DNA of 64,000 nt from an uncultured Eubacteriales bacterium (lineage in GTDB: Bacteria > Acidobacteriota > Aminicenantia > Aminicenantales > UBA4085), in NCBI GenBank assembly GCA_964556755.1, contig CAZKXI010000005.1, positions 94,762-158,761 on the forward strand. The letters run 5' to 3'. The notes below the pieces were generated by a model, which saw only the letters and a program-made list of their open reading frames with translations, was not told the DNA's origin and did not search any database. A program made the position numbers and the translations under genes. Below are positions 5,721 through 24,883 of this stretch, piece by piece. Numbering within the stretch: position 1 is the stretch's first letter; each line of letters opens with the position of its first letter.

Positions 5721-6810
5721 CGAACTCGTCCAGGCCGCCGTCCAGGACGCGCTCCGTATCCCCGGTCTCGAGACGGGTCCGCAGATCCTTGATCATGCGG
5801 TAGGGGTGGAGGACGTAGGACCGGATCTGGTTGCCCCAGGCGATCTCGGTCTTGGCGTCCTCGAGCTTGTCGATCTTCTCCCGCTTCTTGCGCTGCTCCA
5901 GCTCGTAGAGGCGGGCCTTGAGGACCTTCATGGCCGCGGCCTTGTTCTTGTGCTGGGAGCGCTCGTTCTGGCATTGGACGACGATGCCGGTCGGCAGGTG
6001 GGTGATGCGGACGGCCGAGTCCGTGGTGTTGACGTGCTGGCCGCCCTTGCCGCCGGACCGGTAGGTGTCGATCTTGAGGTCCTCGGGGTTGACGGCCACC
6101 TCGACGTCGTCGTCGATCTCGGGGTAGACGAAGACCGCGGCGAAGGACGTGTGGCGCCGCTTGGCCGCGTCGTAGGGGGAGATGCGGACCAGCCGGTGGA
6201 CGCCGTTCTCCTGGCTCAGGCGGCCGAAGGCATAGTCGCCCTCGATGCGGATCGTGGCGCTCTTGATGCCCGCCTCCTCGCCCGGCGTCACGTCCAGCGA
6301 CTCGGTCTTCCAGCCCATCAGCTCGGCGTAGCGCAGGTACATCCGCAGCAGCATCGAGGCCCAGTCCTGCGACTCCGTGCCGCCGGCGCCCGGGTGGATG
6401 GTCAGGATGGCGTTGCGGGGATCGTCCACTTCCGTGAACAGGGCCTGCAGCTCGGCCTCGTCCAGGCTCTTGGCGAAGTCGCCCAGGGCCAGCTCGACGT
6501 CCTTGGCCACCGGCTCGCCCTCGCGGGCCAGCTCCAGGAGGGTGTCGAGGTCGTCCTTCTTGCCGTAGAGGCGATCCAGGAAGGCGATCTCGCGCTCCAG
6601 CCGCTTCTTGCCTTGCTGCAGGGTCATGGACCGCTTCTGGTCCTGCCAGACCGCCGGGTCCGAGAGCTCCTTGGTCAAGGCGTCCATCTCGGCCCGCCGG
6701 GCCGTCAGGTCGAGAAAGCCGCGCAGCTCCTCGAACTTGGCGAACAGGCCGCGGGCCTTGGCTTCCAGGTCGGTGAATTGTCCGGTCGTCGTCTCGTTTT
6801 GGGGGCTCAT
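5680..6810 (-). CDS. prfB: Peptide chain release factor 2, single continuous ORF with no programmed frameshift
   Basis: GGQ and SPF motifs present. The start MSPQNETT reads through LRGFLDL without the CUU-UGA-C shifty site. ATG at 6810 overlaps the lnt stop. Confidence 0.88.
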
Positions 6811-11531: not shown

Positions 11532-11948
11532 TCAGGGCTTGGTGACGAACTCGAAGTCCTTGTCGAACCGGACGGCCACGCCCTGCTTCTTTTTCTTCTT
11601 ATCGGGCTTCTCCAGGCGGATGGTCAGGCCGCCGATGCGCAGCTTGACCTTCTCGCCGTCGGTGGCCTGGGGCGGGATCTCGATGACCAGGTGCAGCTTG
11701 GAGCCGACGATGAGGCCGGAGTCGAGGCAGAAGTAGGCTCCCGTGGAGCTGATGTTCTGGAGAGTGGCTTCCTCCCGGAACTTCTTGCCCTGCGGCAGGC
11801 GGCCCTCGACGACGGCCCGCAGGGGCAGCTCGAAGCGCCACTCGCGGCGGCGGTTCAGCTCCTCGGCGGTGGCGGCGGAGGCGGCGGCCTTGCGGGGTCG
11901 GGTTCGTGGCTTGGCGGCGGCTGGGGTCATGGCGGATTCCCTTGACAT
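11532..11948 (-). CDS. PilZ domain protein (canonical c-di-GMP-binding motifs)
   Basis: RxxxR (RREWR) and N-x-S-x-x-G (NISSTG) motifs. Confidence 0.75.
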   Translation of the reverse strand: MSRESAMTPAAAKPRTRPRKAAASAATAEELNRRREWRFELPLRAVVEGRLPQGKKFREEATLQNISSTGAYFCLDSGLIVGSKLHLVIEIPPQATDGEKVKLRIGGLTIRLEKPDKKKKKQGVAVRFDKDFEFVTKP

Positions 11949-11952
11949 GGGA

Positions 11953-12645
11953 TTAGAACAGGGCCGAGTTGATGGCGTAGAGGGCCAGCTGGAGCCGGCT
12001 GTGGGTGTCCAGCTTGGCGTAGATGCTCTTGATATGGGAGCGGACCGTGTTCTTGCTGATGAACAGGGTGGCGGCGATCTCGTCGTTGCTGCGGCCCTGG
12101 CCGATGAGCTTGAGGACCTGGAACTCGGTCGGGGTCAGCTGGTCGAGCGTCTTCTCCTTCATGTCCCGCCCGACCACGGCGATGATGCGGTCCATGATGC
12201 TGCTCATCTTGTCGCGGGGCAGCCAGATCTCGCCCTTGGCGATGACCCGGATGGCCTCCGGCAGCTGATGGGACTGGTCGTTGAGGTCGAAGTAGCCGCG
12301 GGCCCCGACGTTGATCAGGCCGACGATCTCCTCGTGCGAGGGGATGTTGCCCATGATCAGCATCTGGGTCTTGATGGGGTCCTGGCTGATCTCCCGGATG
12401 GCCTTGCAGATCTCCCGCATGTTGGGCAGCGCTTCGATGCTGGCGAAGAGGATGACCGAAGGCTTGACTTGGCGGAGGGCCTGCATGAACGACTCGATGG
12501 TCGTCTTCTCGATGGCCGCGACCGCGATCTCGCGGTCGGCCTCGACGGCCTTGAGGATGCCGGCCAGGATCAGGTCGGAGGGGCAATAGACCAGGACCTT
12601 GATGGTCGGGGCCGGGGCGGCCGTCTCGGGCTTCTTCTTGTTCAT
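11953..12645 (-). CDS. LuxR/FixJ-family transcriptional regulator with a degenerate, probably non-phosphorylatable, receiver domain
   Basis: C-terminal LuxR-type HTH (LTPTEFQVLKLIGQGRSNDEIA...). The N-terminal receiver-like fold lacks the acidic pocket (VLVYCPS where DD is expected) and the phospho-acceptor Asp. Confidence 0.75.
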   Translation of the reverse strand: MNKKKPETAAPAPTIKVLVYCPSDLILAGILKAVEADREIAVAAIEKTTIESFMQALRQVKPSVILFASIEALPNMREICKAIREISQDPIKTQMLIMGNIPSHEEIVGLINVGARGYFDLNDQSHQLPEAIRVIAKGEIWLPRDKMSSIMDRIIAVVGRDMKEKTLDQLTPTEFQVLKLIGQGRSNDEIAATLFISKNTVRSHIKSIYAKLDTHSRLQLALYAINSALF

Positions 12646-12683: not shown

Positions 12684-12712
12684 ATCGTAATCAAACCCTC
12701 CGGGCGTGTCAA
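12684..12712 (-). promoter_or_regulatory. Sigma-70-like promoter TTGACA-17-TACGAT for the LuxR-type regulator
   Basis: Minus-strand -35 TTGACA (12712..12707) and -10 TACGAT (12689..12684), 17-nt spacer, ~40 nt upstream of the ATG at 12645. Confidence 0.5.
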
Positions 12713-12770
12713 TGGAACGGGCCGGGCGGCGGAGGCGGGAGGACGCGGACGGAGGCCGGGCTTGCCGCGG

Positions 12771-13097
12771 TCAGAGGGCTTCGGGCGAGACGCGGAAGCC
12801 CGGGTCGAGGCGCAGGCTGACCAAGCGGCCGGGGCGGCCCGGCGCCGGCGAGGGCTGGACGTCCAGCACGGTCCCCGACAGGGCCAGGCGGAAGGGCGAG
12901 CCCAGCAGGACCGTTCGCGGCACGTTGAGGGAGAAGCGGAGCCTGGCCCCCGGCCGGACCGCGGCCTTGAGCCACAGGCAGGCCTGCTCGCTGCTGACCG
13001 AGGACAGCCGGGCCGGCTCGACGAACTCGGCCGCCCGGGCGTCGCAGCCGCGGACCATGGCCGGCAGATCGAGGTCGAAGGCCCGTTCGCGGCTCAT
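12771..13097 (-). CDS. Small PilZ-like (degenerate) protein; paralog of 13105..13464
   Basis: Shares a D-A-R-[AG]-A-E-F..E.A core with the neighbouring gene but lacks RxxxR. Confidence 0.5.
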   Translation of the reverse strand: MSRERAFDLDLPAMVRGCDARAAEFVEPARLSSVSSEQACLWLKAAVRPGARLRFSLNVPRTVLLGSPFRLALSGTVLDVQPSPAPGRPGRLVSLRLDPGFRVSPEAL

Positions 13098-13104
13098 CCT
13101 CTCC

Positions 13105-13464
13105 TCACGCCTCCGGCTTGATGATGTAGCGGCTGTCGAAGTGGACCGTGACCTTCTGGCCGGCGGCGGGCTGGCGCTTCATCTCGATCATGACCACCCG
13201 GCCCTTGATGGCCATCTTGAGGGACTTGTCCACGGACAGCTTCTCCGGCAGATCGATGATCAGCTTCAGGCGGGCGCCGATGGCCACCGGGCTCTTCAGG
13301 TTGAAGGTCGAGCCCTGGTGGTTGATGAAGGTCAGGACGGTGGCTTCGCTGAATTCGGCCCCTCGGGCGTCGACGCCCTGAACCTGGGTCGGCAGGGGGA
13401 AATGGAATCCCCGTCCGCCTCCGGTCAGAGCCGAAGTCTCGTCGACAAGACCGTTCTTCATCAT
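13105..13464 (-). CDS. Small PilZ-like (degenerate) protein
   Basis: 119 aa with a GVDARGAEF...FINHQGSTF pattern reminiscent of the PilZ beta-barrel. Non-canonical motifs. Confidence 0.5.
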   Translation of the reverse strand: MMKNGLVDETSALTGGGRGFHFPLPTQVQGVDARGAEFSEATVLTFINHQGSTFNLKSPVAIGARLKLIIDLPEKLSVDKSLKMAIKGRVVMIEMKRQPAAGQKVTVHFDSRYIIKPEA

Positions 13465-13608
13465 ATCATCGTCCTCGCGATCCTCGGTCGGATCTTTTCA
13501 TTCTGGCAGGGTCTAGGATGCCATGGCCCCCCGGGGGGGTCAATCACCCCCAAGGGTGATGAAAAGGGTGAAAAACCCCTTCCGGCCGATCCCCCCTCGC
13601 CGGCTCGG

Positions 13609-13637
13609 TTGACTTCCCGGCCCCCGGGGGCTAGAAT
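13609..13637 (+). promoter_or_regulatory. Sigma-70-like promoter TTGACT-17-TAGAAT upstream of proS
   Basis: Near-consensus hexamers with a 17-nt spacer. GGAG RBS precedes the ATG at 13666. Confidence 0.55.
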
Positions 13638-13665
13638 GACCGGGCATTTCCGCCTGGAGTCCCCC

Positions 13666-15120
13666 ATGAGCCAAGATGATCGTCTGGTCCGCCAGATCAC
13701 TCCCAAATCGGAGGATTTCTCCCGCTGGTACATCGAGATCGTCCAGAAGGCCGAGCTGGCCGACTACACCCCGATGAAGGGGATGATGGTCATCCGGCCC
13801 TACGGCTACGCGATCTGGGAGGCCGTCCAGAGCGGGCTCGACCGGCGGATCAAGGACGCCGGGCACGTCAACGCCTACTTCCCCCTCTTCATCCCGGAGG
13901 GCTTCCTGAAGAAGGAGGCCGAGCACGTCCAAGGCTTCTCGCCCGAGGTGGCCTGGGTCACCATCGGCGGCCAGGAGGAGCTGGAGGAGAGGCTGGCCGT
14001 CCGCCCGACCTCGGAGGCCATCATCGGCCACATGTATTCCAAGTGGGTCAAGTCCTGGCGCGACCTGCCCGTGCTGATCAACCAGTGGGCCAACATCGTC
14101 CGCTGGGAGAAGGTCACCCGGCCCTTCCTGCGGACGACCGAGTTCCTCTGGCAGGAAGGCCACACCTGCCACGAGACGGCCGAGGAGGGCGAGGCCGAGA
14201 CGCTCCGGATCCTGGCCCTCTACAAGGAGTTCTGCGAGACGGAGCTGGCCATCCCGGTCATCGCCGGGCGCAAGACCCTGCGGGAGAAGTTCGCCGGGGC
14301 CCAGATGACCTACGCCATCGAGGCTCTGATGTCCGACGGCAAGGCCCTCCAGATGGGCACCTCCCACAACCTCGGCCAGCACTTCTCCAAGGCCTTCGAC
14401 ATCAAGTTCGAAGACCGCAGCCAGACCCTGCAGTACGTCTGGCAGACCTCTTGGGGCATGACCACCCGGACCATCGGGGCCCTGATCATGTCCCACGGCG
14501 ACGACTCCGGCCTGCGGCTGCCGCCCCGGATCGCGCCCCAGCAGGCGGTCATCGTCACCATTCCGGCGGCCGGCTGGAGGGAGACCGTCCTGCCCGTGGC
14601 CGAGAAGGTCCGGGCGACGCTGCGGGCGGCCGGGATCCGGGTGGACCTGGACGCCCGGGAGGAATTCACTCCGGGCTGGAAGTACGCCGAGTACGAGATG
14701 CGGGGCGTCCCGGTCCGGATCGAGATCGGCCCCCGCGACGTCAAGAGCGGCCAGGCGGTCCTGGTCCGGCGCGACCTGAAGAGCAAGGAGACGGTGTCGC
14801 TGGAAGCCCTCCCCGGCCGGCTGGCGGCCCTGCTGGATGAGATCCAGGCCAGCCTCCTGGCCCAGGCCCGGGCCTTCCTGGCCGCCAACACCCGGCCGGC
14901 CTCGACCTATGACGAGTTCAAGAGCATCTTGGAAGGCCCGCGCGGCTTCGTCCAGGCTCCCTGGTGCGGAGGCGAAGCCTGCGAGGACAGGATCAAGGCG
15001 GAGACGATGGCCACCATCCGGGTTCTCCCCATGGACCTGGACGGCACGCCGGTCGGCGGCGGCTGCGTCTGCTGCGGGGAGCCCGGGAAGGCTACGGCGC
15101 TCTTCGCCCGGTCCTATTGA
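13666..15120 (+). CDS. proS: Proline--tRNA ligase, archaeal/eukaryotic-type with C-terminal Zn-binding domain
   Basis: Class II aaRS motifs plus a C-terminal CGGEAC...CVCCGEPG zinc motif. 484 aa from the ATG at 13666; the track ORF extends spuriously upstream. Confidence 0.88.
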   Translation: MSQDDRLVRQITPKSEDFSRWYIEIVQKAELADYTPMKGMMVIRPYGYAIWEAVQSGLDRRIKDAGHVNAYFPLFIPEGFLKKEAEHVQGFSPEVAWVTIGGQEELEERLAVRPTSEAIIGHMYSKWVKSWRDLPVLINQWANIVRWEKVTRPFLRTTEFLWQEGHTCHETAEEGEAETLRILALYKEFCETELAIPVIAGRKTLREKFAGAQMTYAIEALMSDGKALQMGTSHNLGQHFSKAFDIKFEDRSQTLQYVWQTSWGMTTRTIGALIMSHGDDSGLRLPPRIAPQQAVIVTIPAAGWRETVLPVAEKVRATLRAAGIRVDLDAREEFTPGWKYAEYEMRGVPVRIEIGPRDVKSGQAVLVRRDLKSKETVSLEALPGRLAALLDEIQASLLAQARAFLAANTRPASTYDEFKSILEGPRGFVQAPWCGGEACEDRIKAETMATIRVLPMDLDGTPVGGGCVCCGEPGKATALFARSY

Positions 15121-15148
15121 TCGGGCCCATCACCCAAGGAGAGTGATC

Positions 15149-16198
15149 ATGGCTCAAGAGCCGATTTTCCTCGACCGCAACGAGAACAACTACGGTCCGG
15201 CCCCGGCCTGCTACGAGGTCCTCCGCAACGCCAGCCTCGACCAGATGAGCTGGTACTCCAAGGACTTCTCGCGGGGTGTCAAGAGCGCCCTGTCGGAGCG
15301 GCTGGCCAAGGACTATGGCGTGCCCGAGTCCATCGTCCTGCTCGGCTACGGCGGCGAGGATATCCTGAAGCAGACCGTCCACTGCTACCTGGCCAAGGGC
15401 GACACGATCATGATCCCGACCCACTCCTGGTGGTACTACAAGGCCATCGCGGCCGAGAAGGGCGGGTTCACGGTCGAGTACCCCATGCTGCCCGGCCCCG
15501 ACGCCTTCGTCTACGACGTCGAGGGGCTGCTCCGGCTGGCCCGCCAGCATGGTCCCCGGGTGGTCCTCATCAGCTCGCCCAACAACCCGACCGGCAACAC
15601 CCTGGAGCCGGACGCCCTGCGCCGCGTCCTGCACGAGCTGGTCGGCAGCGTCGTGGTTTTGGACGAGGCCTACTGGGGCTTCGGCGGCGCCCGCGTCGAC
15701 GTCAAGGGGCTGATCAACGACTTCCCCAACCTGATCATCATCCGGACCTTCTCCAAGTACTTCGCCATGGCCGGCGTCCGGATCGGCTACGCCTTCATCG
15801 GGCGCGGCCTGACCCAGCTGTCGCAGTTCAGCGCCCGCTACCTGGGCTACAGCCGGCTGAACGAGCGGACGGCCCTGGCCGCCCTCGACGCGCCCGACTA
15901 CTACGCCGGCATCGCGTCCCGGATGATGGAGGATAAGGAGATGCTCTACGGGGAGATCAACCGCATCCCCGGCTTCAAGGCCTACCGTTCCGACGCCAAC
16001 TTCATCCTGGCCGACATCCCCCCGGACCACAAGGACGCCCTCAAGGACTTCCTGACCCGGCGCGGCCTGATCATCAAGTTCTTCAAGAACGAGCCCTTCC
16101 TGGACTACTGCGTCCGGATCACCATCGGCACCCGGGAGCAGAACCAAGCCCTGGCGGCGGCCCTGGCCGCCTTCGCCCAGGAGAAAGGGATCCGGTGA
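15149..16198 (+). CDS. PLP-dependent class I/II aminotransferase-fold enzyme, HisC/CobD-like (aminotransferase or phospho-amino-acid decarboxylase)
   Basis: 350 aa from an ATG preceded by AAGGAGAG. Contains an SFSKYFAMAGVRIGY Lys motif and an NPTGN motif, typical of the HisC/CobD family. Confidence 0.75.
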   Translation: MAQEPIFLDRNENNYGPAPACYEVLRNASLDQMSWYSKDFSRGVKSALSERLAKDYGVPESIVLLGYGGEDILKQTVHCYLAKGDTIMIPTHSWWYYKAIAAEKGGFTVEYPMLPGPDAFVYDVEGLLRLARQHGPRVVLISSPNNPTGNTLEPDALRRVLHELVGSVVVLDEAYWGFGGARVDVKGLINDFPNLIIIRTFSKYFAMAGVRIGYAFIGRGLTQLSQFSARYLGYSRLNERTALAALDAPDYYAGIASRMMEDKEMLYGEINRIPGFKAYRSDANFILADIPPDHKDALKDFLTRRGLIIKFFKNEPFLDYCVRITIGTREQNQALAAALAAFAQEKGIR

Positions 16199-17079
16199 GC
16201 CTCGCCGCCGAGTTCAAGCGGTCGCTGAAGCTGGTCGAGGTCGAGGAGCTCTTCGACCTCTTCCTCTTCCGCCCCCTGGCCTTCCTCCTGGTCAAGGCCA
16301 TCTACCGGACCCGCATCACGCCCAACCAGATCACCTTCTACTCCATCTCGGTGGGCGTGGGGGCCGGCATCTGCTTCGGAGTCGGCGGCCCCCGGGTGGT
16401 CACGATCGGCGTCGCCCTCTACCTCCTGTCCATCGTCCTGGACTGCGCCGACGGGCAGCTGGCCCGGCTGAAGAAGAACGGCACCCGGATGGGCCGCCTC
16501 CTCGACGGGCTGGTCGATTACATCACCGAAGCCTCCGTCATGCTCGGCCTGGCCCTGGGCCTGCGGCCCGAGGGCTGGCGGGACGACCGCTGGTGGATCG
16601 TGATCGCGGCCATGGTGGCCAGCACCATCTTCCACGCCATGCTCCTGGACTACTACCGGAACCGCTTCCTGAACGTCGTCAACGGCTTTCCGGCCTACGA
16701 GGACGAGGACTACCATACCTTCAAGCTGGAGCGGGATGAGCTGAAGGCCTCCGGCCGGCACCCCGTCCGCCGCCGCTTCATCGCCGCCTACCTCTTCTAC
16801 CTGGAGCTGCAGCGCCGATTGACCCTGCGCCGTCAGATGAGCCACACCATGCGCCAGATCGACCCGCAGGAGTACCGCCGGGCCAACCGGGTCCTCATGC
16901 GCTTCTGGACGCTCCTGGGCACCTCCACCCAGATCGTCCTGCTGAGCCTCTGCATCCTGTTCCGGCGCCTGGATATCTTCTTCTGGATGGAGATCGTCGT
17001 CCTCAACGTCCTGACGGCGGTCCTGTTCTTCATCCAGACGCGCATCGACATCCGCCTGGAGGGGAGCGTCATCGAGTGA
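16195..17079 (+). CDS. CDP-alcohol phosphatidyltransferase family protein
   Basis: Perfect D-x2-DG-x2-AR-x8-G-x3-D-x3-D motif (DCADGQLARLKKNGTRMGRLLDGLVD) and multiple TM helices. GTG start overlaps the upstream stop. Confidence 0.82.
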   Translation: MSLAAEFKRSLKLVEVEELFDLFLFRPLAFLLVKAIYRTRITPNQITFYSISVGVGAGICFGVGGPRVVTIGVALYLLSIVLDCADGQLARLKKNGTRMGRLLDGLVDYITEASVMLGLALGLRPEGWRDDRWWIVIAAMVASTIFHAMLLDYYRNRFLNVVNGFPAYEDEDYHTFKLERDELKASGRHPVRRRFIAAYLFYLELQRRLTLRRQMSHTMRQIDPQEYRRANRVLMRFWTLLGTSTQIVLLSLCILFRRLDIFFWMEIVVLNVLTAVLFFIQTRIDIRLEGSVIE

Positions 17080-17819
17080 AGGGCGTCATCCTGGCCGCCG
17101 GCCTGGCCTCGCGGCTGCGGCCCCTGACCGACTCCACGCCCAAATGCCTTCTGCCTCTGGGCGGCGGCACCCTGCTGGGCCGGACCCTCGACAATCTGGC
17201 TTCGGCCGGCCTGCGCGAGGTGGTCCTGGTCACCGGCTACCGGGAAGACCAGATCCGCGCCTACGTCGGCGGCCGCGGGACGGAGATGCGGGTGGAATTC
17301 ATCACCAATCCCGTCTACGCCTCGACCAACAACATCTATTCCCTGTGGCTGGCCCGCGACGCGGTCCGGGAGTCGGGCCTGGTGCTGCTGGACAGCGACA
17401 TCCTCTTCGACCCCGCCGTCCTGCCGAAGGTTCTCGGCGCGGGCGCTCCGGCCGCGCTGGCGGTCAAGGCCGGCTGCGAGCTGGGCGAGGAAGAGATCAA
17501 GGTCGAGGCGGACGGAGCCGGCCGGGTGCGGGCGATCGGCAAGCACGTCCCGCCGGACCGGGCCATGGGCGAATCGATCGGCATCGAGGCCTTCGCCCCG
17601 GCCGCCATGCCGGCGCTCCTGGCGGCCCTGGAAGGCAAGGTCATGGCCGAGGGGCGCCGGGATGTCTTCTACGAGGCCGCCTTCCAGGACATGATCGACC
17701 GCGGCGGCGACATCCTGGCCGTCGACATCGGCGGGTCGCTGGCCGTGGAGATCGACACCGTCGAGGACTTTCGCCGGGCCGAGCGCGACGTCCTGCCGCT
17801 GCTCCCCGAATCCCGCTGA
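17076..17819 (+). CDS. Nucleotidyltransferase (LicC/CobY/GlmU N-terminal-like; predicted CTP:phospho-alcohol cytidylyltransferase)
   Basis: Signature G-x-G-x-R (ILAAGLASRLRPLT) and an NTP_transferase fold. Start overlaps the upstream stop. Confidence 0.8.
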   Translation: MKGVILAAGLASRLRPLTDSTPKCLLPLGGGTLLGRTLDNLASAGLREVVLVTGYREDQIRAYVGGRGTEMRVEFITNPVYASTNNIYSLWLARDAVRESGLVLLDSDILFDPAVLPKVLGAGAPAALAVKAGCELGEEEIKVEADGAGRVRAIGKHVPPDRAMGESIGIEAFAPAAMPALLAALEGKVMAEGRRDVFYEAAFQDMIDRGGDILAVDIGGSLAVEIDTVEDFRRAERDVLPLLPESR

Positions 17820-17823
17820 CCGG

Positions 17824-18026
17824 CTCTCTTTCCCCTCCCGGGAAGAGCGGTCCAGAGGGTCAGCCCGGCTGCTTGGTCGAGCCTTCACCCGTGTTCGACC
17901 CGCTCCCGCAGACCGCGGCGGTATGACGATAGCGGCTCGGGCCTCGTCGGTGGCTTCACGGGCTCGCCCTGCGCTTCTCCGCCGGGCTGGCCCTCCGAAC
18001 CGCTTCTCTTCCCGGTCGGAGAGCGG
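17824..18026. mobile_element. MITE-like repeat copy D (short variant, ~203 bp)
   Basis: Degenerate left end CTCTCTTTCCCCTCCCGGGAAGAGCGGTCC and right TIR CCGAACCGCTTCTCTTCCCGGTCGGAGAGCGG. Interior GGCTGCTTGGTCGAGCC is shared with copy E. Fills the gap between the NTP-transferase stop and the lpxB stop. Confidence 0.6.
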
Positions 18027-18029
18027 GGA

Positions 18030-19187
18030 TCAGGATTTTTCGCCCTCGGAGCGGCTGCCGATGAGGGCGGCCAGCTCGCGGGCGGCGTTGAGGGAGGCCG
18101 GCTCCTCGCCCAGCCCGGCCCGGATCTCGGCGAATCGCCGCCTCATCCTGTCCCTCTCCCCGGTCGACTCAAGAAGGCGCAGGGCTTCCGCCGTCAGGCG
18201 CTCGGCCGTGAAGTCCTTCTGGATAAGCTCTGGGATGACGGGCTCTCCGGCCAGGACGTTGACGATGCTGAAGCTGCGAACGCGGACGAGATGCGAGCCG
18301 AGGGCGTAGGTCAGCGGCGAGATGCGGTAGAAGGCCGCCAGCGGGACGCCGAGAAGAGCGGCCTCGAGATTGGCCGTGCCGCAGGCGGAAAGAGCCAAGT
18401 CCGAGGCGGCCAAGGCATCGAAAGGATCCCGGTCGACGACGGTCAGGCCGTCCAGATCGGCCGGGATGAAATCCTTCAAGACATCCTCCGCCAGATTGTC
18501 CGACTTGATCAGGACGAAGCGGGCGCCCACGGCGGCCTGGATGCGGCGGGCCGATTCTATCAGCACCGGCATATGCCGGGCCACCTCGCCCGCCCGGCTG
18601 CCGGGCAGGAGGGCGATCAGCGGCTGGGATGGGGCCAGGCCCAAGCCCCGCCTGACCTCGTCGCGGCCGGCCCTGGCCCGGACGCGCTCTAAGAGCGGCT
18701 GGCCGATGTAGCGGGCCGGGATGCCCGCTTCGGCGTAGATTCTCTCCTCGAAGGGGAAGATGAGCAGCATCTTGTCGACCCGGCGGCGGATCGAGCGCAG
18801 CCGCCCCGGCCGCCAGGCCCAGACGGTCGGGCTGACGTAGAAGAGGACCGGCACGCCCAGCCTCCTGATCCGCGCCGCCAGGCGCAGGTTGAAGTCGGGC
18901 GCGTCGACCAGGACGGCCGCGTCGGGACGGCGACGGCGGACCTCCGCGGTCAACGACCGCCTCAGGCGGAGCAGGCGCGGCAGGTGGCTGACGACTTCGG
19001 CCAGGCCCATCAGGGCCAGGTCTTCCATCGGCCGCAGGCGCTCCATCCCGGCGGCCTCCAGGGCCGGCCCGCCGACGCCGAAGACGGCGGCATCCGGGTG
19101 ATCCTGACGGAAGGCCCGCCATAAGGCGGCCCCGAGGTTGTCGCCGGACTTCTCGCCGGCCACCATGAAGACGAGCGGCCCGCTCAC
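18030..19187 (-). CDS. lpxB: Lipid-A-disaccharide synthase
   Basis: N-terminal MVAGEKSGDNLGA plus GT-B fold motifs. Start is the GTG at 19187 (4-nt overlap with the upstream stop) or the ATG at 19166. Confidence 0.85.
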   Translation of the reverse strand: MSGPLVFMVAGEKSGDNLGAALWRAFRQDHPDAAVFGVGGPALEAAGMERLRPMEDLALMGLAEVVSHLPRLLRLRRSLTAEVRRRRPDAAVLVDAPDFNLRLAARIRRLGVPVLFYVSPTVWAWRPGRLRSIRRRVDKMLLIFPFEERIYAEAGIPARYIGQPLLERVRARAGRDEVRRGLGLAPSQPLIALLPGSRAGEVARHMPVLIESARRIQAAVGARFVLIKSDNLAEDVLKDFIPADLDGLTVVDRDPFDALAASDLALSACGTANLEAALLGVPLAAFYRISPLTYALGSHLVRVRSFSIVNVLAGEPVIPELIQKDFTAERLTAEALRLLESTGERDRMRRRFAEIRAGLGEEPASLNAARELAALIGSRSEGEKS

Positions 19188-19753
19188 TTGTCGGCCCTGT
19201 CGAAGCGGATGATCTCGGGGTTGGCGTCGCCGCTCTGGCCGTAGAAGAACAGCCAGGCGTCGTAGGTGTCCTGGCCGCGATAGAGCCGGAGCGAGGAGCG
19301 GGGCGAGCGGCTGACGACGCCGAGCAGGCGGGGGTTGTCGACCGAGCTCAGGGAGCCCTGGGGAACGACGAAGACGCGGGTCACGGAGACGGCCTGGGCT
19401 CCCGCCCCGGAGCGAGACGCCGCGGCCGGGCGGGCCGGCCCCCCCGTCGCGCCGCCGTCGGCGGCCAGGACGAGATCCCATTCGCCGTCCTTGGTCATGG
19501 GGTCGGGGAAGGGCCGGCGCAGGCAGCGGGCTTCCACCAGATCGTCGACCGTGGCGGGGAAGCGCCCGGGGTTCTTGCGGTTGAAAAGGCGGACCGCCTC
19601 GACGTACTGCCGGCCGCGGAAGATGAGCTCGTCTTCGGCCTCCCTCCGGATCTGGGTCTGCCAGACGGGCACGGCGGCCAGCAGCCCGATGGCCAGGATC
19701 GCGATCATGGCCATCAGGATGATGAACGTGTAGCCGTCTTGGCGCTTCATCAC
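19184..19753 (-). CDS. Prepilin-type N-terminal domain protein (minor pseudopilin-like, no Glu+5)
   Basis: Class III signal-like N-terminus DGYTFIILMAMIAILAIGL without the conserved E5. Confidence 0.6.
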   Translation of the reverse strand: MMKRQDGYTFIILMAMIAILAIGLLAAVPVWQTQIRREAEDELIFRGRQYVEAVRLFNRKNPGRFPATVDDLVEARCLRRPFPDPMTKDGEWDLVLAADGGATGGPARPAAASRSGAGAQAVSVTRVFVVPQGSLSSVDNPRLLGVVSRSPRSSLRLYRGQDTYDAWLFFYGQSGDANPEIIRFDRADK

Positions 19754-20142
19754 CAGGTGCCGTAGGGCGTGCCGTCCAAGCCGGTCCGGTCCGAGCCCGA
19801 GCGGACGTCGGTGATGCCGGGGACGTAGCCCGGCTCGATGTCGTCGGCTTGGGGCTCCTCGCGGACCTCGACCCAGGTGTCGGCGCTGCCGGTCATGGGG
19901 TCCTCGGGCTTCTTGCGCAGGTAGCCCTCGTCGACGAGGGCCTGCAGCGACAGGGGGTACTTGGACTTGTCGGTGTAGTACTGGTCGATGAGCTTGCGGA
20001 TGGTGAAGAGGCTCTCCTTGAGCGTCGACTCGCGGGCCTTGACGGCCGCGTTCTTGAATTGGGGCAAGGCCAGGCCGACCAGGATGCCGATCATGGTGAA
20101 GACGATGATCATCTCGATCAGGGTGAAGCCGCGCTCGCGCAT
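19750..20142 (-). CDS. Type II secretion/type IV pilus major pseudopilin, GspG-like
   Basis: Canonical RGFTLIEMIIV prepilin cleavage/methylation motif and a GspG-like globular domain. Confidence 0.8.
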   Translation of the reverse strand: MRERGFTLIEMIIVFTMIGILVGLALPQFKNAAVKARESTLKESLFTIRKLIDQYYTDKSKYPLSLQALVDEGYLRKKPEDPMTGSADTWVEVREEPQADDIEPGYVPGITDVRSGSDRTGLDGTPYGTW

Positions 20143-20152
20143 GGGCCCTCCG

Positions 20153-20698
20153 TCACCAGTCCCGGTATTTCGTGCCGTCGATGGCCGTGCCCCGGCTGCG
20201 GGTGTACACGTCGAAGACGTCCTCCTCGCCCCAGGAGGAGGCGTCGGGCGGGTCCTGGGACGAGAGCAGGCCCCACTCTCGGGTCCCCGTCATGGGATCG
20301 CGGGGGATGCGCCGGAGAAGCTTGATGATCCGCCCTTCGCCCCCGCCGCGGGCCGAGGAGGCCCGCTCCGGGGCCCGTCCGGACGCGCCGGCGGCGGCGG
20401 TCAGGCCGGCCGCGCCGCCGGCTTTCAGCTGGACGCCCTCGACCAGGACCTCCAAGCTCGGCGGATAGCCGCTCTCGGTGTCGTCGGCCTCGATCTTGTT
20501 CTCGTCGGCCAGCTGCTTGTAGGCGTCGATGGCCTCGCGGACCAGGCGCAGGCCGCGCCGCAGCTCGATCTCCTTCTCCCGCTTGACGGCCGTCTTGGCC
20601 AACGGCAGGGCGGCCCCGGCCAGGATGGCCAGGATGGCCGCCGCCACCGTCATCTCGGCGAGGGTGAAGCCCGCCCGCCGGCGGAAGAAGCTGCGCAT
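20153..20698 (-). CDS. GspG-like pseudopilin paralog
   Basis: AGFTLAEMTV N-terminal motif. Confidence 0.75.
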   Translation of the reverse strand: MRSFFRRRAGFTLAEMTVAAAILAILAGAALPLAKTAVKREKEIELRRGLRLVREAIDAYKQLADENKIEADDTESGYPPSLEVLVEGVQLKAGGAAGLTAAAGASGRAPERASSARGGGEGRIIKLLRRIPRDPMTGTREWGLLSSQDPPDASSWGEEDVFDVYTRSRGTAIDGTKYRDW

Positions 20699-23459: not shown

Positions 23460-23593
23460 TTCGGTCTTTCCTTTGTTTGGAGTCTTGTCGATGTTTTATT
23501 CCGATATATTCTAGCAGACTTTCCCGCCGACCGCAAACGATTTAAGCCGGGAGTTTTGTCTTGCCGGGCCGGGCGGGATTCGGTTATAGTCGG

Positions 23594-24883
23594 GTGGCCG
23601 TGTACGCCCTCTACTCGCTCCTCCTGCTGTTGGCCCTGGCCGTCATATTCCCCGCCTACGCCATCAAGCTCCGGCTGAAGCGGGGTGAGCCGCTCCGCTT
23701 CGCCGAAAGGCTTGGCCATCGGCTGCCCAAGCCCGAGCCGGGCCGGCCCTTCCTCTGGATCCATGCCGTCTCGGTCGGGGAAGTGCTCTCCCTGCAGGGG
23801 CTGACGGCGGCTATCAAAGCCCGCCATCCCGAATGGACCCTGGGCGTCTCCGTGCTGACCGAATCGGGCTATCGGATGGCTTTGGACAAGCTTGGAGCCG
23901 ACCAGGTCTTCTTCGTCCCCCTGGACTTCCGCTTCAGCCTCCGCCGGGTCCTCCGCCGCCTGGATCCATCCTGCCTGGTTCTGGCCGAGTCCGAGTTCTG
24001 GCCCCGCCTGCTGCGCGAGACGCGACGATGGGGCGTGCCCATCCTGCTCATCAACGGGCGCGTCTCGACCCGGACGGCGACCCGGATGAGGAAGATCCGC
24101 CCCCTGGTCCGCCGGGTCGTCGGGAACATCGGCCGCTTCCTCGTCCAAACCGAGAGAGACAAGGCCCGGCTGGTCGAGGCGGGTTTGGAGGCCGAGCGGA
24201 TCGAGGTGGCCGGGAACCTGAAGTGCGAGGTCCGGCTGCCGACAGTGACGGTGGAGCAAGCCGCGGCGGCCCGGGCCGAGCTCGGCGTCTCGGAGGAGGA
24301 ATCTGTCGTCGTGGCCGGATCGATCCATCCCGGAGAGGAGGGGGCGCTGCTCGATGCTCTTCTGGCGGCTCGCCGCGCGGGGCATCCCGCCCGCATGATC
24401 CTAGCCCCCCGCCATCCGGACAAGTTCGCGACTCTGGAGAAGGACCGGCCGGGGGACGGGCTCGTCTTTCAGCGGAAGTCCTCCTTCCGCCCCGGGGAGC
24501 CTTGGAACGTCCTCATCCTCGACACCATCGGCGAGCTGGCCCGCTCCTACGCCTTGGCCGACTCCGCGTTTATCGGCGGAAGCCTGATCCCTCGCGGGGG
24601 CCAGAACCTGCTCGAGCCGGCGTTCTATGGAAAGCCCGTCTTCTTCGGTCCCCACATGGACAATTTCGCCGCTCTGGCCGAGGCCTTTCTCCTTGATGGG
24701 GGAGCCCACACCGTGCGCACGGCGGAGGATCTGGAGGCGATGTTCGCCTCGGCCGGGTCCGCCTCGGGCCGGGAGGCCGGCCGCAAGGCCCGGGCCACGC
24801 TCGAATCGCTGTCGGGGGCGACGGAGCGGACGCTCTTCGCCATCGAAGAGGAGATGGCCCATGGGCGCGGCGCGGCCGCCTAG
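23594..24883 (+). CDS. waaA: 3-deoxy-D-manno-octulosonic acid (Kdo) transferase
   Basis: N-terminal signal-anchor, GT-B fold and WaaA/KdtA-family motifs (LILDTIGEL...FIGGSL). GTG start near 23594; the TTG at 23561 is also possible. Confidence 0.82.
   Translation: MAVYALYSLLLLLALAVIFPAYAIKLRLKRGEPLRFAERLGHRLPKPEPGRPFLWIHAVSVGEVLSLQGLTAAIKARHPEWTLGVSVLTESGYRMALDKLGADQVFFVPLDFRFSLRRVLRRLDPSCLVLAESEFWPRLLRETRRWGVPILLINGRVSTRTATRMRKIRPLVRRVVGNIGRFLVQTERDKARLVEAGLEAERIEVAGNLKCEVRLPTVTVEQAAAARAELGVSEEESVVVAGSIHPGEEGALLDALLAARRAGHPARMILAPRHPDKFATLEKDRPGDGLVFQRKSSFRPGEPWNVLILDTIGELARSYALADSAFIGGSLIPRGGQNLLEPAFYGKPVFFGPHMDNFAALAEAFLLDGGAHTVRTAEDLEAMFASAGSASGREAGRKARATLESLSGATERTLFAIEEEMAHGRGAAA

Follow-up and report, generated by a model that had tools for sequence, protein, structure and literature searches.

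A conserved aminotransferase, CDP-alcohol phosphotransferase and nucleotidyltransferase operon of Aminicenantes and other bacteria is a candidate Kennedy-type head-group pathway

Bacteria usually attach phospholipid head groups by way of CDP-diacylglycerol, and routes of Kennedy logic, in which the head group itself is activated, are to our knowledge known from few bacteria only. Here, we characterize three consecutive genes following proS in a 64,000-nucleotide stretch of DNA (referred to as the window) from an uncultured bacterium of the Aminicenantales lineage UBA4085 (contig CAZKXI010000005.1). They encode a pyridoxal 5'-phosphate (PLP)-dependent enzyme, a membrane CDP-alcohol phosphotransferase and a nucleotidyltransferase, termed PLP enzyme, transferase and nucleotidyltransferase below and, collectively, the module. 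The trio is a conserved operon, not a chance neighborhood. Taken as a whole, we consider it best explained, with reasonable confidence, as a dedicated Kennedy-type head-group pathway. The underlying logic, in which a phospho-amino-alcohol is made, activated with CTP and transferred, is likely to hold: already put forward in the initial annotation of this DNA, it is strongly supported by synteny, gene fusions, the pairing of the transferase family with CMP-2-aminoethylphosphonate (CMP-AEP) genes and a conserved acidic residue pair. The module genes are:

15149–16198, plus strand: HisC-like PLP-dependent aminotransferase paralogue, 349 aa (open reading frame (ORF), Pfam, NCBIfam, AlphaFold2 (AF2) model)
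16195–17079, plus strand: membrane CDP-alcohol phosphotransferase, 294 aa (ORF, PF01066, signature motif, AF2 model)
17076–17819, plus strand: LicC/PntC-like nucleotidyltransferase, 247 aa (ORF, PF12804 and PF00483, PDB matches)

Positions of the three genes after proS, as initially annotated, agree with the ORFs, all of which are on the plus strand. The same genes are called with identical lengths in independent metagenome assemblies, and a protein 100% identical to the PLP enzyme is on record in an NCBI contig of a metagenome-assembled genome (MAG). Both junctions are 4-base stop/start overlaps, by which the genes are translationally coupled. The GTGA at 16195, joining the PLP enzyme and transferase genes, is present in the sequence as described before, and the overlap between the transferase and nucleotidyltransferase genes at 17076, previously taken to be of ATGA type, also reads GTGA. 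None of the three proteins reaches a curated NCBIfam equivalog cut-off.

Conservation of the module was analyzed by tblastn with the three proteins of the window, using the 80 best species-representative loci that carry the transferase family. These derive from Acidobacteriota/Aminicenantes, Bacteroidota, Ignavibacteriota/Kapabacteria, Calditrichota, Rhodothermaceae and two MAGs labeled Chromatiales. All three genes are found together in 49 of the 80 loci, spanning at least five phylum-level groups, and in a tight PLP enzyme–transferase–nucleotidyltransferase order in 38 of 80; several loci lacking a complete trio end at contig edges. Cross-phylum identity of the PLP enzyme (49–65%) lies above that of the transferase (33–53%), and no his genes are present among the recurrent neighbor families that were characterized. 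Chance adjacency is excluded by this synteny across phyla. A putative cytidylyltransferase and a CDP-alcohol phosphotransferase are co-inherited with a predicted dedicated phospho-alcohol supply, the arrangement that marks a Kennedy-type pathway.

The PLP enzyme matches Pfam family Aminotran_1_2 (129 bits, above the gathering score) and displays all catalytic and PLP-contacting residues of fold-type I class I/II aminotransferases. These invariant residues, K203 (the PLP lysine), D172, N146, Y175 and R211, are the aligned counterparts of K214, D184, N157, Y187 and R222 of Escherichia coli HisC. Initially described as an enzyme of HisC/CobD fold, it proved to be HisC-like, while the CobD half of this description did not stand: the best NCBIfam match is hisC (TIGR01141) with 228 bits, under the cut-off of 276.55, and the CobD model (TIGR01140) yields 131.2 bits versus a cut-off of 290.55, well below the HisC score, so that membership in the CobD equivalog was rejected. 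Likewise, the folds closest to its AF2 model (pLDDT 91.8) are HisC structures, with Medicago HISN6 as best match and CobD structures at rank 21 or lower, and the protein carries the HisC-type N-E-N-x-Y-G-P motif. Basic residues holding the phosphate or carboxylate are kept, R322 and R335 of E. coli HisC corresponding to K310 and R323. A true HisC is nevertheless disfavored by the score below cut-off, a missing N-terminal arm and an altered substrate pocket. The PLP enzyme begins at approximately E. coli residue 31, leaving hisC profile positions 1–19 unmatched, and therefore lacks the arm bearing Tyr20, which we take to be a substrate contact; Asp85 and Tyr110, presumably the imidazole contacts, are replaced by an invariant E70 and an invariant W94. 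The PLP enzyme shares the Trp that replaces Tyr110 with HisC-like proteins that are fused to NTP-transferase domains and linked to LicD; this Trp is absent from P0351, a true HisC fused to a HAD domain that passes the hisC cut-off with 293.6 bits. Seven scanned HisC-like relatives score between 201.8 and 242.1 bits in the hisC model, all under the cut-off. Further invariants of the PLP enzyme family are R10, S-W-W-Y-Y-K (W94-W95-Y96-Y97-K98) and R230-Y-L-G, the latter being a low-confidence loop in the AF2 model. The scores and residues thus place the PLP enzyme as HisC-like rather than CobD-like, yet apparently outside the HisC equivalog, and a HisC-like enzyme makes transamination more likely than decarboxylation.

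Decarboxylation had been suggested initially by analogy to CobD. In such a route, O-phospho-L-serine or -threonine would be converted to phosphoethanolamine or aminopropanol phosphate, giving rise to lipids resembling phosphatidylethanolamine or ceramide-phosphoethanolamine. A sister variant in other Aminicenantes fits this analogy: a 604-aa fusion of an NTP-transferase domain with a CobD-like PLP domain is encoded directly upstream of an orthologous transferase (~45% identical), and its CobD-like domain scores 163 bits with TIGR01140 versus 125 with hisC. Moreover, phosphoserine is converted to phosphoethanolamine by the PLP enzyme Cj1436 (PMC11800397), the additional invariant residues R10, K98 and R230 could hold a substrate carboxylate, and phosphoethanolamine is the phosphate analogue of 2-aminoethylphosphonate (AEP), the head group of the phosphonate variants presented below. 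The PLP enzyme of the window, however, shares only ~22% identity with the fused CobD-like domain, and its hisC score far above that for CobD, its nearest folds and its sequence motif all point to HisC. We therefore regard a decarboxylase route as rather unlikely for the window, and the CobD analogy as suited to the fusion variant only.

Matches of the nucleotidyltransferase to NTP_transf_3 (PF12804, 56.8 bits) and NTP_transferase (PF00483, 47.9 bits) are both above the gathering score, and its best PDB matches are LicC (1jyk, 1e-16), the PntC domain of Tde1415 (6pd1, 1.5e-11) and IPCT (2xme). The signature AGLASR-x8-PK (A8-G9-L-A-S12-R13-x8-P22-K23) corresponds to the LicC/PntC signature G-x-G-(T/S)-R-x4-8-P-K, save for an Ala in place of the second Gly. 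In PntC and LicC, two acidic residues contact the substrate amine (PMC6697681). D106 and E200 of the nucleotidyltransferase, which, like D108, Y199 and a number of further positions, do not vary across 50 orthologues, align with these amine-contacting acids in both Tde-PntC (E104, E196) and Spn-LicC (D105, D192), the D106 alignment to LicC including a 2-residue register correction made by eye and hence counting as moderate evidence. Aromatic residues Y88, W91 and Y199 are likewise placed where LicC has aromatic residues. These features moderately favor a substrate with an amine group, as opposed to inositol phosphate or sugar phosphates, and we propose that the protein is a putative CTP:amino-alcohol-phosphate cytidylyltransferase.

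The transferase was identified by CDP-OH_P_transf (PF01066; 52.8 bits versus a gathering score of 22), the domain covering residues 41–150. The perfect CDP-alcohol motif of the initial annotation was confirmed: DCADGQLARLKKNGTRMGRLLDGLVD conforms to D-x2-D-G-x2-A-R-x8-G-x3-D-x3-D, with residues D83-C-A-D86-G87-Q-L-A90-R91-x8-G100-x3-D104-x3-D108, whose defining positions are invariant in 62 homologues; the signature is expected on transmembrane helices 2–3. Approximately seven membrane helices are predicted in the AF2 model (pLDDT 87.2), plus a helical hairpin (residues 169–214) inserted ahead of the last two or three of them. The C-terminal part, which had been considered unusually long, is no anomaly of a single gene: the listed homologues are mostly 290–300 aa in length, and D152-Y-Y-R-x-R157, Y199, Y202, Q206, W238, G242, N271 and Q281 are invariant in this part of the 62 sequences, making it a hallmark of a distinct ~290–300-aa transferase family. 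This family is large, with 3051 homologous proteins at E ≤ 1e-5 and at least 441 genome places with a confirmed relative when one genome per species was scanned.

Foldseek returned AF2299, the PIP synthases of M. tuberculosis and M. kansasii, and IPCT-DIPPS as best matches to the transferase model (probability 1.00, ~145–220 aligned columns, TMq ~0.35–0.43), and CEPT1 as a marginal match (E ~1); no PgsA or PssA structures are among the significant fold matches. In line with this ranking, the archaetidylinositol-phosphate synthase (archin_ph_syn, 52.3 bits, cut-off 180), PIP synthase (PIPSynth, 44.7 bits, cut-off 170) and IPCT-DIPPS (IPPtranDIPPsyn, 38.5 bits, cut-off 580) models score highest, followed by pgsA (TIGR00560, 28.7 bits, cut-off 109.1), pssA (TIGR00473, 23.3 bits, cut-off 107) and PRK10832 (23 bits, cut-off 304). 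The transferase does not cluster with PgsA or PssA, and a housekeeping identity as either of these or as a PIP synthase was rejected by equivalog scores and fold ranking. PIP synthases, archaetidylinositol-phosphate synthases and IPCT-DIPPS are the nearest families, with the transferase belonging to none. Outside the trio, some loci display variant arrangements of the transferase gene. In one Aminicenantes locus (L018:5001–5852) it is located between PCMT/DUF192 and lpxB with no adjoining PLP enzyme or nucleotidyltransferase gene, which indicates that some lineages have retained the transferase with donor genes that reside elsewhere or were lost. In five further loci (L048, L051, L062, L070, L078; ~5950–6700 each), the family member is directly followed in tandem by another, shorter CDP-alcohol transferase paralogue, and orthologues of the PLP enzyme and nucleotidyltransferase are lacking.

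Public annotations name the module genes "histidinol-phosphate aminotransferase" and "phosphatidylglycerophosphate synthase". These names, together with hisC being the best NCBIfam match of the PLP enzyme and the lack of a second hisC in the window, would agree with three housekeeping genes brought together by chance, namely a hisC, a PgsA- or PIP-synthase-type transferase using CDP-diacylglycerol and a nucleotidyltransferase serving sugar activation. Yet the scores remain far below all equivalog cut-offs, different phyla have kept the trio together without his genes among the characterized recurrent neighbors, HisC-like domains are fused to LicC-like transferases, and the PLP enzyme combines a missing HisC Tyr arm with a changed imidazole pocket. 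Chance proximity of housekeeping genes is therefore highly improbable, and both public names are probably wrong for the module genes.

Reading all substrates and products from the genes, a head-group pathway would proceed in three steps. First, the HisC-like PLP enzyme would transaminate a small 2-oxoalkyl phosphate, most simply dihydroxyacetone phosphate (DHAP), to yield serinol phosphate. DHAP is the simplest candidate because imidazole-acetol phosphate corresponds to DHAP with its hydroxyl group exchanged for an imidazole, and because PLP enzymes converting DHAP to serinol phosphate are known, namely Cj1437 (PMC11800397) and RtxA (PMC3222319). Second, homology and conserved residues suggest that the LicC/PntC-like enzyme would use CTP and the amino-alcohol phosphate to form a CDP-amino-alcohol. 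Third, the membrane CDP-alcohol phosphotransferase would, as its motif, fold and gene context suggest, move the phospho-amino-alcohol to a membrane-embedded hydroxyl group, releasing CMP. Candidate acceptors are diacylglycerol or ether-linked glycerol and, in Bacteroidales encoding a serine palmitoyltransferase (SPT) beside the module, ceramide; the end product would be an aminophospholipid. Serinol phosphate as the specific amino-alcohol phosphate is a tentative assignment, somewhat less probable than not.

Several points weigh against this scheme. For the cationic residues R10, K98 and R230, binding of a carboxylate such as that of phosphoserine or phosphohydroxypyruvate is equally conceivable. 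IPCT-DIPPS, which is among the nearest solved relatives of the transferase, has a soluble acceptor. The lipid genes nearest to the module in the window are lpxB and waaA of lipopolysaccharide (LPS) synthesis, and the window contains no SPT, LysE-type, GNAT, ATP-grasp or second transferase gene. Finally, no reports of a phosphoserinol lipid were found in a literature search that covered few subscription journals. Queries for CDP-serinol, phosphatidylserinol, CDP-aminopropanol and CDP-histidinol retrieved only an unrelated paper on serinol biotechnology, and the papers retrieved on aminopentanetetrol lipids concern archaea and Aquificae, not module-bearing taxa.

Gene fusions in other genomes connect the first two steps. 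A search for fusions of NTP-transferase and HisC-like domains among 1.84 billion representatives identified four such proteins (P0285, P0335, P0342 and P0356); the two that were scanned, P0285 and P0342, score ~222 bits with hisC versus ~141–145 with CobD. These fusions indicate that HisC-like aminotransferases feed LicC-like cytidylyltransferases. P0285 is encoded directly after a LicD gene. At the loci L089:1123–3959 and L090:187–3023, a 662-aa fusion of an NTP transferase and a HisC-like aminotransferase, with an N-terminal leader of ~65 aa, directly follows a LicD gene, suggesting that the same kind of CDP-amino-alcohol is used for glycan decoration in other organisms. The CDP product would accordingly be consumed either by LicD, acting on glycans, or by the ~294-aa membrane transferase.

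The transferase family is also combined with other donor genes. In one Ignavibacteria locus (L042:5001–10625, Pfam-annotated), it is found with a fusion of Ppm and an NTP transferase, with Ppd, and with an NTP transferase fused to a class-V AEP transaminase; a second one (L082:5001–10655) has the same layout as judged by clustering and ORF lengths. A Flavobacteriaceae locus (L050:300–5867) pairs the transferase with a TagD-like~Ppm fusion, Ppd and a TagD-like~AEPT fusion, and a further family member (L024) is accompanied by a PhnW-like transaminase and an NTP transferase. L042, L082 and L050 are candidate bacterial phosphonolipid synthase operons. These complete clusters of Ppm, Ppd, AEP transaminase and PntC, together with the similarity of the nucleotidyltransferase to PntC (6pd1), raise the question whether the PLP enzyme of the window would itself transaminate phosphonoacetaldehyde to AEP, yielding a phosphonolipid via CMP-AEP. 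Three findings oppose such a route. The window holds neither Ppm nor Ppd, tblastn with Ppm, Ppd and AEP transaminase giving nothing beyond weak matches to the nucleotidyltransferase gene. Neighbor clustering confines Ppd homologues to the four phosphonate-variant loci L042, L050, L082 and L084, and the HisC-like trio is missing from all four. Moreover, the variant clusters employ class-V (PhnW-like) transaminases, not HisC-like ones. For the module of the window, a phosphonate route is hence very improbable.

In two Bacteroidales loci (L031:3805–6850 and L037:3810–6847), a TagD-like cytidylyltransferase and a short-chain dehydrogenase precede the transferase, which is followed by a LysE-type gene. 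This variant may represent a route to a CDP-glycerol-type head group, reduced and not aminated, and the dehydrogenase and the aminotransferase would be alternative ways to process a keto-phosphate. The common denominator of the variants appears to be a small phosphate or phosphonate, mostly amine-bearing, that is CMP/CDP-activated and handed to the transferase.

Neighboring genes in relatives point to the acceptor. In five Bacteroidota loci, SPT is encoded no farther than 5 kb from the module; where tested (L044), it qualifies as bona fide with 697 bits in NF047600 versus a cut-off of 640. A LysE-type membrane protein recurs in 28 loci across all kinds of variants. Both observations suggest lipids as the acceptors of the transferase. 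Three of the loci (L044, L054 and L059) contain a second CDP-alcohol transferase besides SPT, and L044 and L059 further hold two GNAT proteins, an extra NTP transferase, a TetR regulator and an ATP-grasp (RimK-like) protein. L044:328–10596 and L059:290–10742, both from Bacteroidales, are large putative lipid operons in which these genes are combined with SPT, the trio and the LysE-type gene, and L054, L017 and L019 are similar.

A different fate of the CDP-amino-alcohol would be transfer to a soluble alcohol, forming a phosphodiester solute akin to di-myo-inositol phosphate (DIP), or to a glycan or LPS acceptor. The solute-making IPCT-DIPPS among the nearest solved relatives of the transferase, the pairing of HisC-like~NTP-transferase fusions with glycan-decorating LicD elsewhere, and the position of the Aminicenantes module next to lpxB with waaA nearby would all be in agreement with it. 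However, synteny with lpxB and waaA is limited to Aminicenantes while the module itself is conserved across phyla, the Bacteroidota modules are accompanied by SPT, a second CDP-alcohol transferase and LysE-type proteins, and the transferase possesses extra conserved membrane helices. Glycan decoration is, besides, normally performed by LicD-type enzymes, not by CDP-alcohol phosphotransferases. A soluble or glycan-bound product is thus unlikely compared with transfer to a membrane lipid.

Within a lipid pathway, the head group may be a novel one. Our more far-reaching idea, which we put forward as a speculative and rather doubtful possibility, is that the module makes an undescribed head group for phospholipids or phosphosphingolipids, either phosphoserinol or a different 2-amino-alkanol phosphate, from a CDP-serinol-type donor, and that the ~294-aa family comprises general bacterial "CMP-X:lipid" head-group transferases that also serve phosphonolipids.

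Bacterial precedent for combining a CDP-alcohol donor with a lipid acceptor is provided by IPCT/BEPIS of R. marinus, which, as described in PMC4587543 (citing Jorge et al. 2015), converts CDP-inositol and dialkylether glycerol to an inositol ether phospholipid. Like IPCT/BEPIS and the archaeal IPCT-DIPPS (PDB 4mnd), the module would employ a cytidylyltransferase to make a soluble CDP-alcohol and an adjoining or fused CDP-alcohol phosphotransferase to transfer it to an alcohol acceptor, the genes being arranged in an operon-like manner; by fold and sequence, IPCT-DIPPS is among the closest relatives of the transferase as well as of the nucleotidyltransferase of the module. The systems differ in the precursor, which is inositol-1-phosphate from MIPS in IPCT/BEPIS and IPCT-DIPPS and would be an amine-bearing phosphate from a HisC-like PLP enzyme in the module. 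Unlike IPCT-DIPPS, the module transferase belongs to a separate ~294-aa family marked by a DYYRxR motif and a conserved hairpin insertion, and it scores far below the IPCT-DIPPS cut-off. A cluster of an NTP transferase, a CDP-alcohol phosphatidyltransferase and a HAD protein has been proposed as an alternative inositol-lipid route in B. vulgatus and Prevotella (PMC9246714). By gene content, it resembles the module as a predicted Kennedy-like route in Bacteroidota with an NTP-transferase-domain protein, a CDP-alcohol phosphotransferase and a sphingolipid link, whereas it is built around MIPS (inositol) and a HAD hydrolase, with no aminotransferase. The initial proposal of a bacterial Kennedy-type pathway hence stands in its logic but not as the first of its kind, since the R. 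marinus system and the proposed B. vulgatus cluster precede it.

Further parallels concern individual steps. The nucleotidyltransferase is LicC-like, with the CDP-choline-forming LicC (1jyk) as its best PDB match. As in the CMP-AEP pathway of PntC, a PLP aminotransferase would feed the cytidylyltransferase, the two being fused in Tde1415 (PntC~AEP transaminase) as well as in relatives of the module, and the amine-binding acidic pair of LicC and PntC is kept (PMC6697681). The Pnt transaminase is of class V and uses a phosphonate from Ppm/Ppd, whereas the module aminotransferase is a HisC-like class I/II enzyme without Ppm; the described acceptor enzymes of Lic and Pnt systems are LicD-type enzymes or glycosyltransferases acting on glycans, in contrast to the membrane CDP-alcohol phosphotransferase of the module. 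Small amino-alcohol phosphates are likewise made by PLP enzymes in the case of Cj1437 (C. jejuni capsule), the RtxA N-domain (rhizobitoxine) and the phosphoserine decarboxylase Cj1436. The chemistry of Cj1437 and RtxA is that proposed for the first step of the module, and products of all three enzymes undergo amide formation on glucuronate or dephosphorylation instead of the cytidylylation proposed here. The eukaryotic Kennedy pathway (ECT/CCT with CEPT1/CHPT1) likewise converts a phospho-alcohol and CTP to a CDP-alcohol for transfer to diacylglycerol, using a transferase with the same signature motif; its phospho-alcohol is derived from a kinase acting on the free base and its cytidylyltransferase has a HIGH/CTP_transf_like fold, compared with a PLP enzyme and a LicC-like fold in the module.

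No description of an operon combining an aminotransferase, a CDP-alcohol phosphotransferase and a nucleotidyltransferase was found in the literature, of which few subscription journals were covered. The operon is real and widespread, apparently uncharacterized, and apparently a variant of the known bacterial Kennedy-type routes. Its interest lies in a possible undescribed head group and in a large transferase family linked to bacterial phosphonolipids and sphingolipids. If the proposed function is correct, the operon would add a widespread, aminotransferase-fed version to the routes that activate head groups. Were the head group indeed undescribed, the operon, which is common in Aminicenantes, Ignavibacteriota, Bacteroidota and Calditrichota, could explain some of the "unidentified aminophospholipids" reported for them. 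Groups bearing the module are frequent in anoxic sediments and digesters; a new head group would supply lipid geochemists with a biomarker and abundant uncultured lineages with a gene-to-lipid link. It would also correct the two pervasive mis-annotations named above, and its occurrence beside Ppm/Ppd genes makes the transferase family a concrete phosphonolipid synthase candidate in bacteria.

The surroundings of the module include the following features:

13636–15120, plus strand: proS, prolyl-tRNA synthetase, 494 aa (independent gene calls, L086 mapped to the window)
15136–15141, plus strand: Shine–Dalgarno-like AAGGAG ahead of the ATG (15149) of the PLP enzyme gene (direct sequence reading)

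The proS stop codon occupies 15118–15120, and proS ends 29 nt before the PLP enzyme gene; it is an upstream context gene outside the proposed pathway. Within 13400–18200, sigma-70-like sites are present only upstream of proS, at 13442–13469 and 13609–13637, and the module is therefore probably co-transcribed with proS. A terminator-like hairpin at 16237–16260 falls within the transferase gene and is most likely a chance match. In the mechanical ORF list, proS appears as an 804-aa frame (12706–15120) over-extended at its 5' end, the real start being near 13636 according to independent calls. The G+C content of ~68% in the window yields many long spurious ORFs on both strands, among them 15092–16147 and 16833–17888 on the minus strand, which overlap the module.

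Downstream, the minus-strand block at 18030–20698 comprises lpxB, followed by a hypothetical gene of ~188 aa, a pair of N_methyl (pseudopilin-like) genes, and pnp and rpsO; waaA lies beyond this block on the plus strand (23561–24883). The lpxB-to-rpsO block, proS and the module are syntenic across the Aminicenantes loci L001–L004. Between coaE and proS, three small minus-strand ORFs are located at 11532–11948, 12771–13097 and 13105–13464, one with a weak PilZ match and the other two without a recorded Pfam match. A GerE/LuxR-type regulator gene (11953–12645, minus strand) is placed among them, an arrangement kept in the relative L004.

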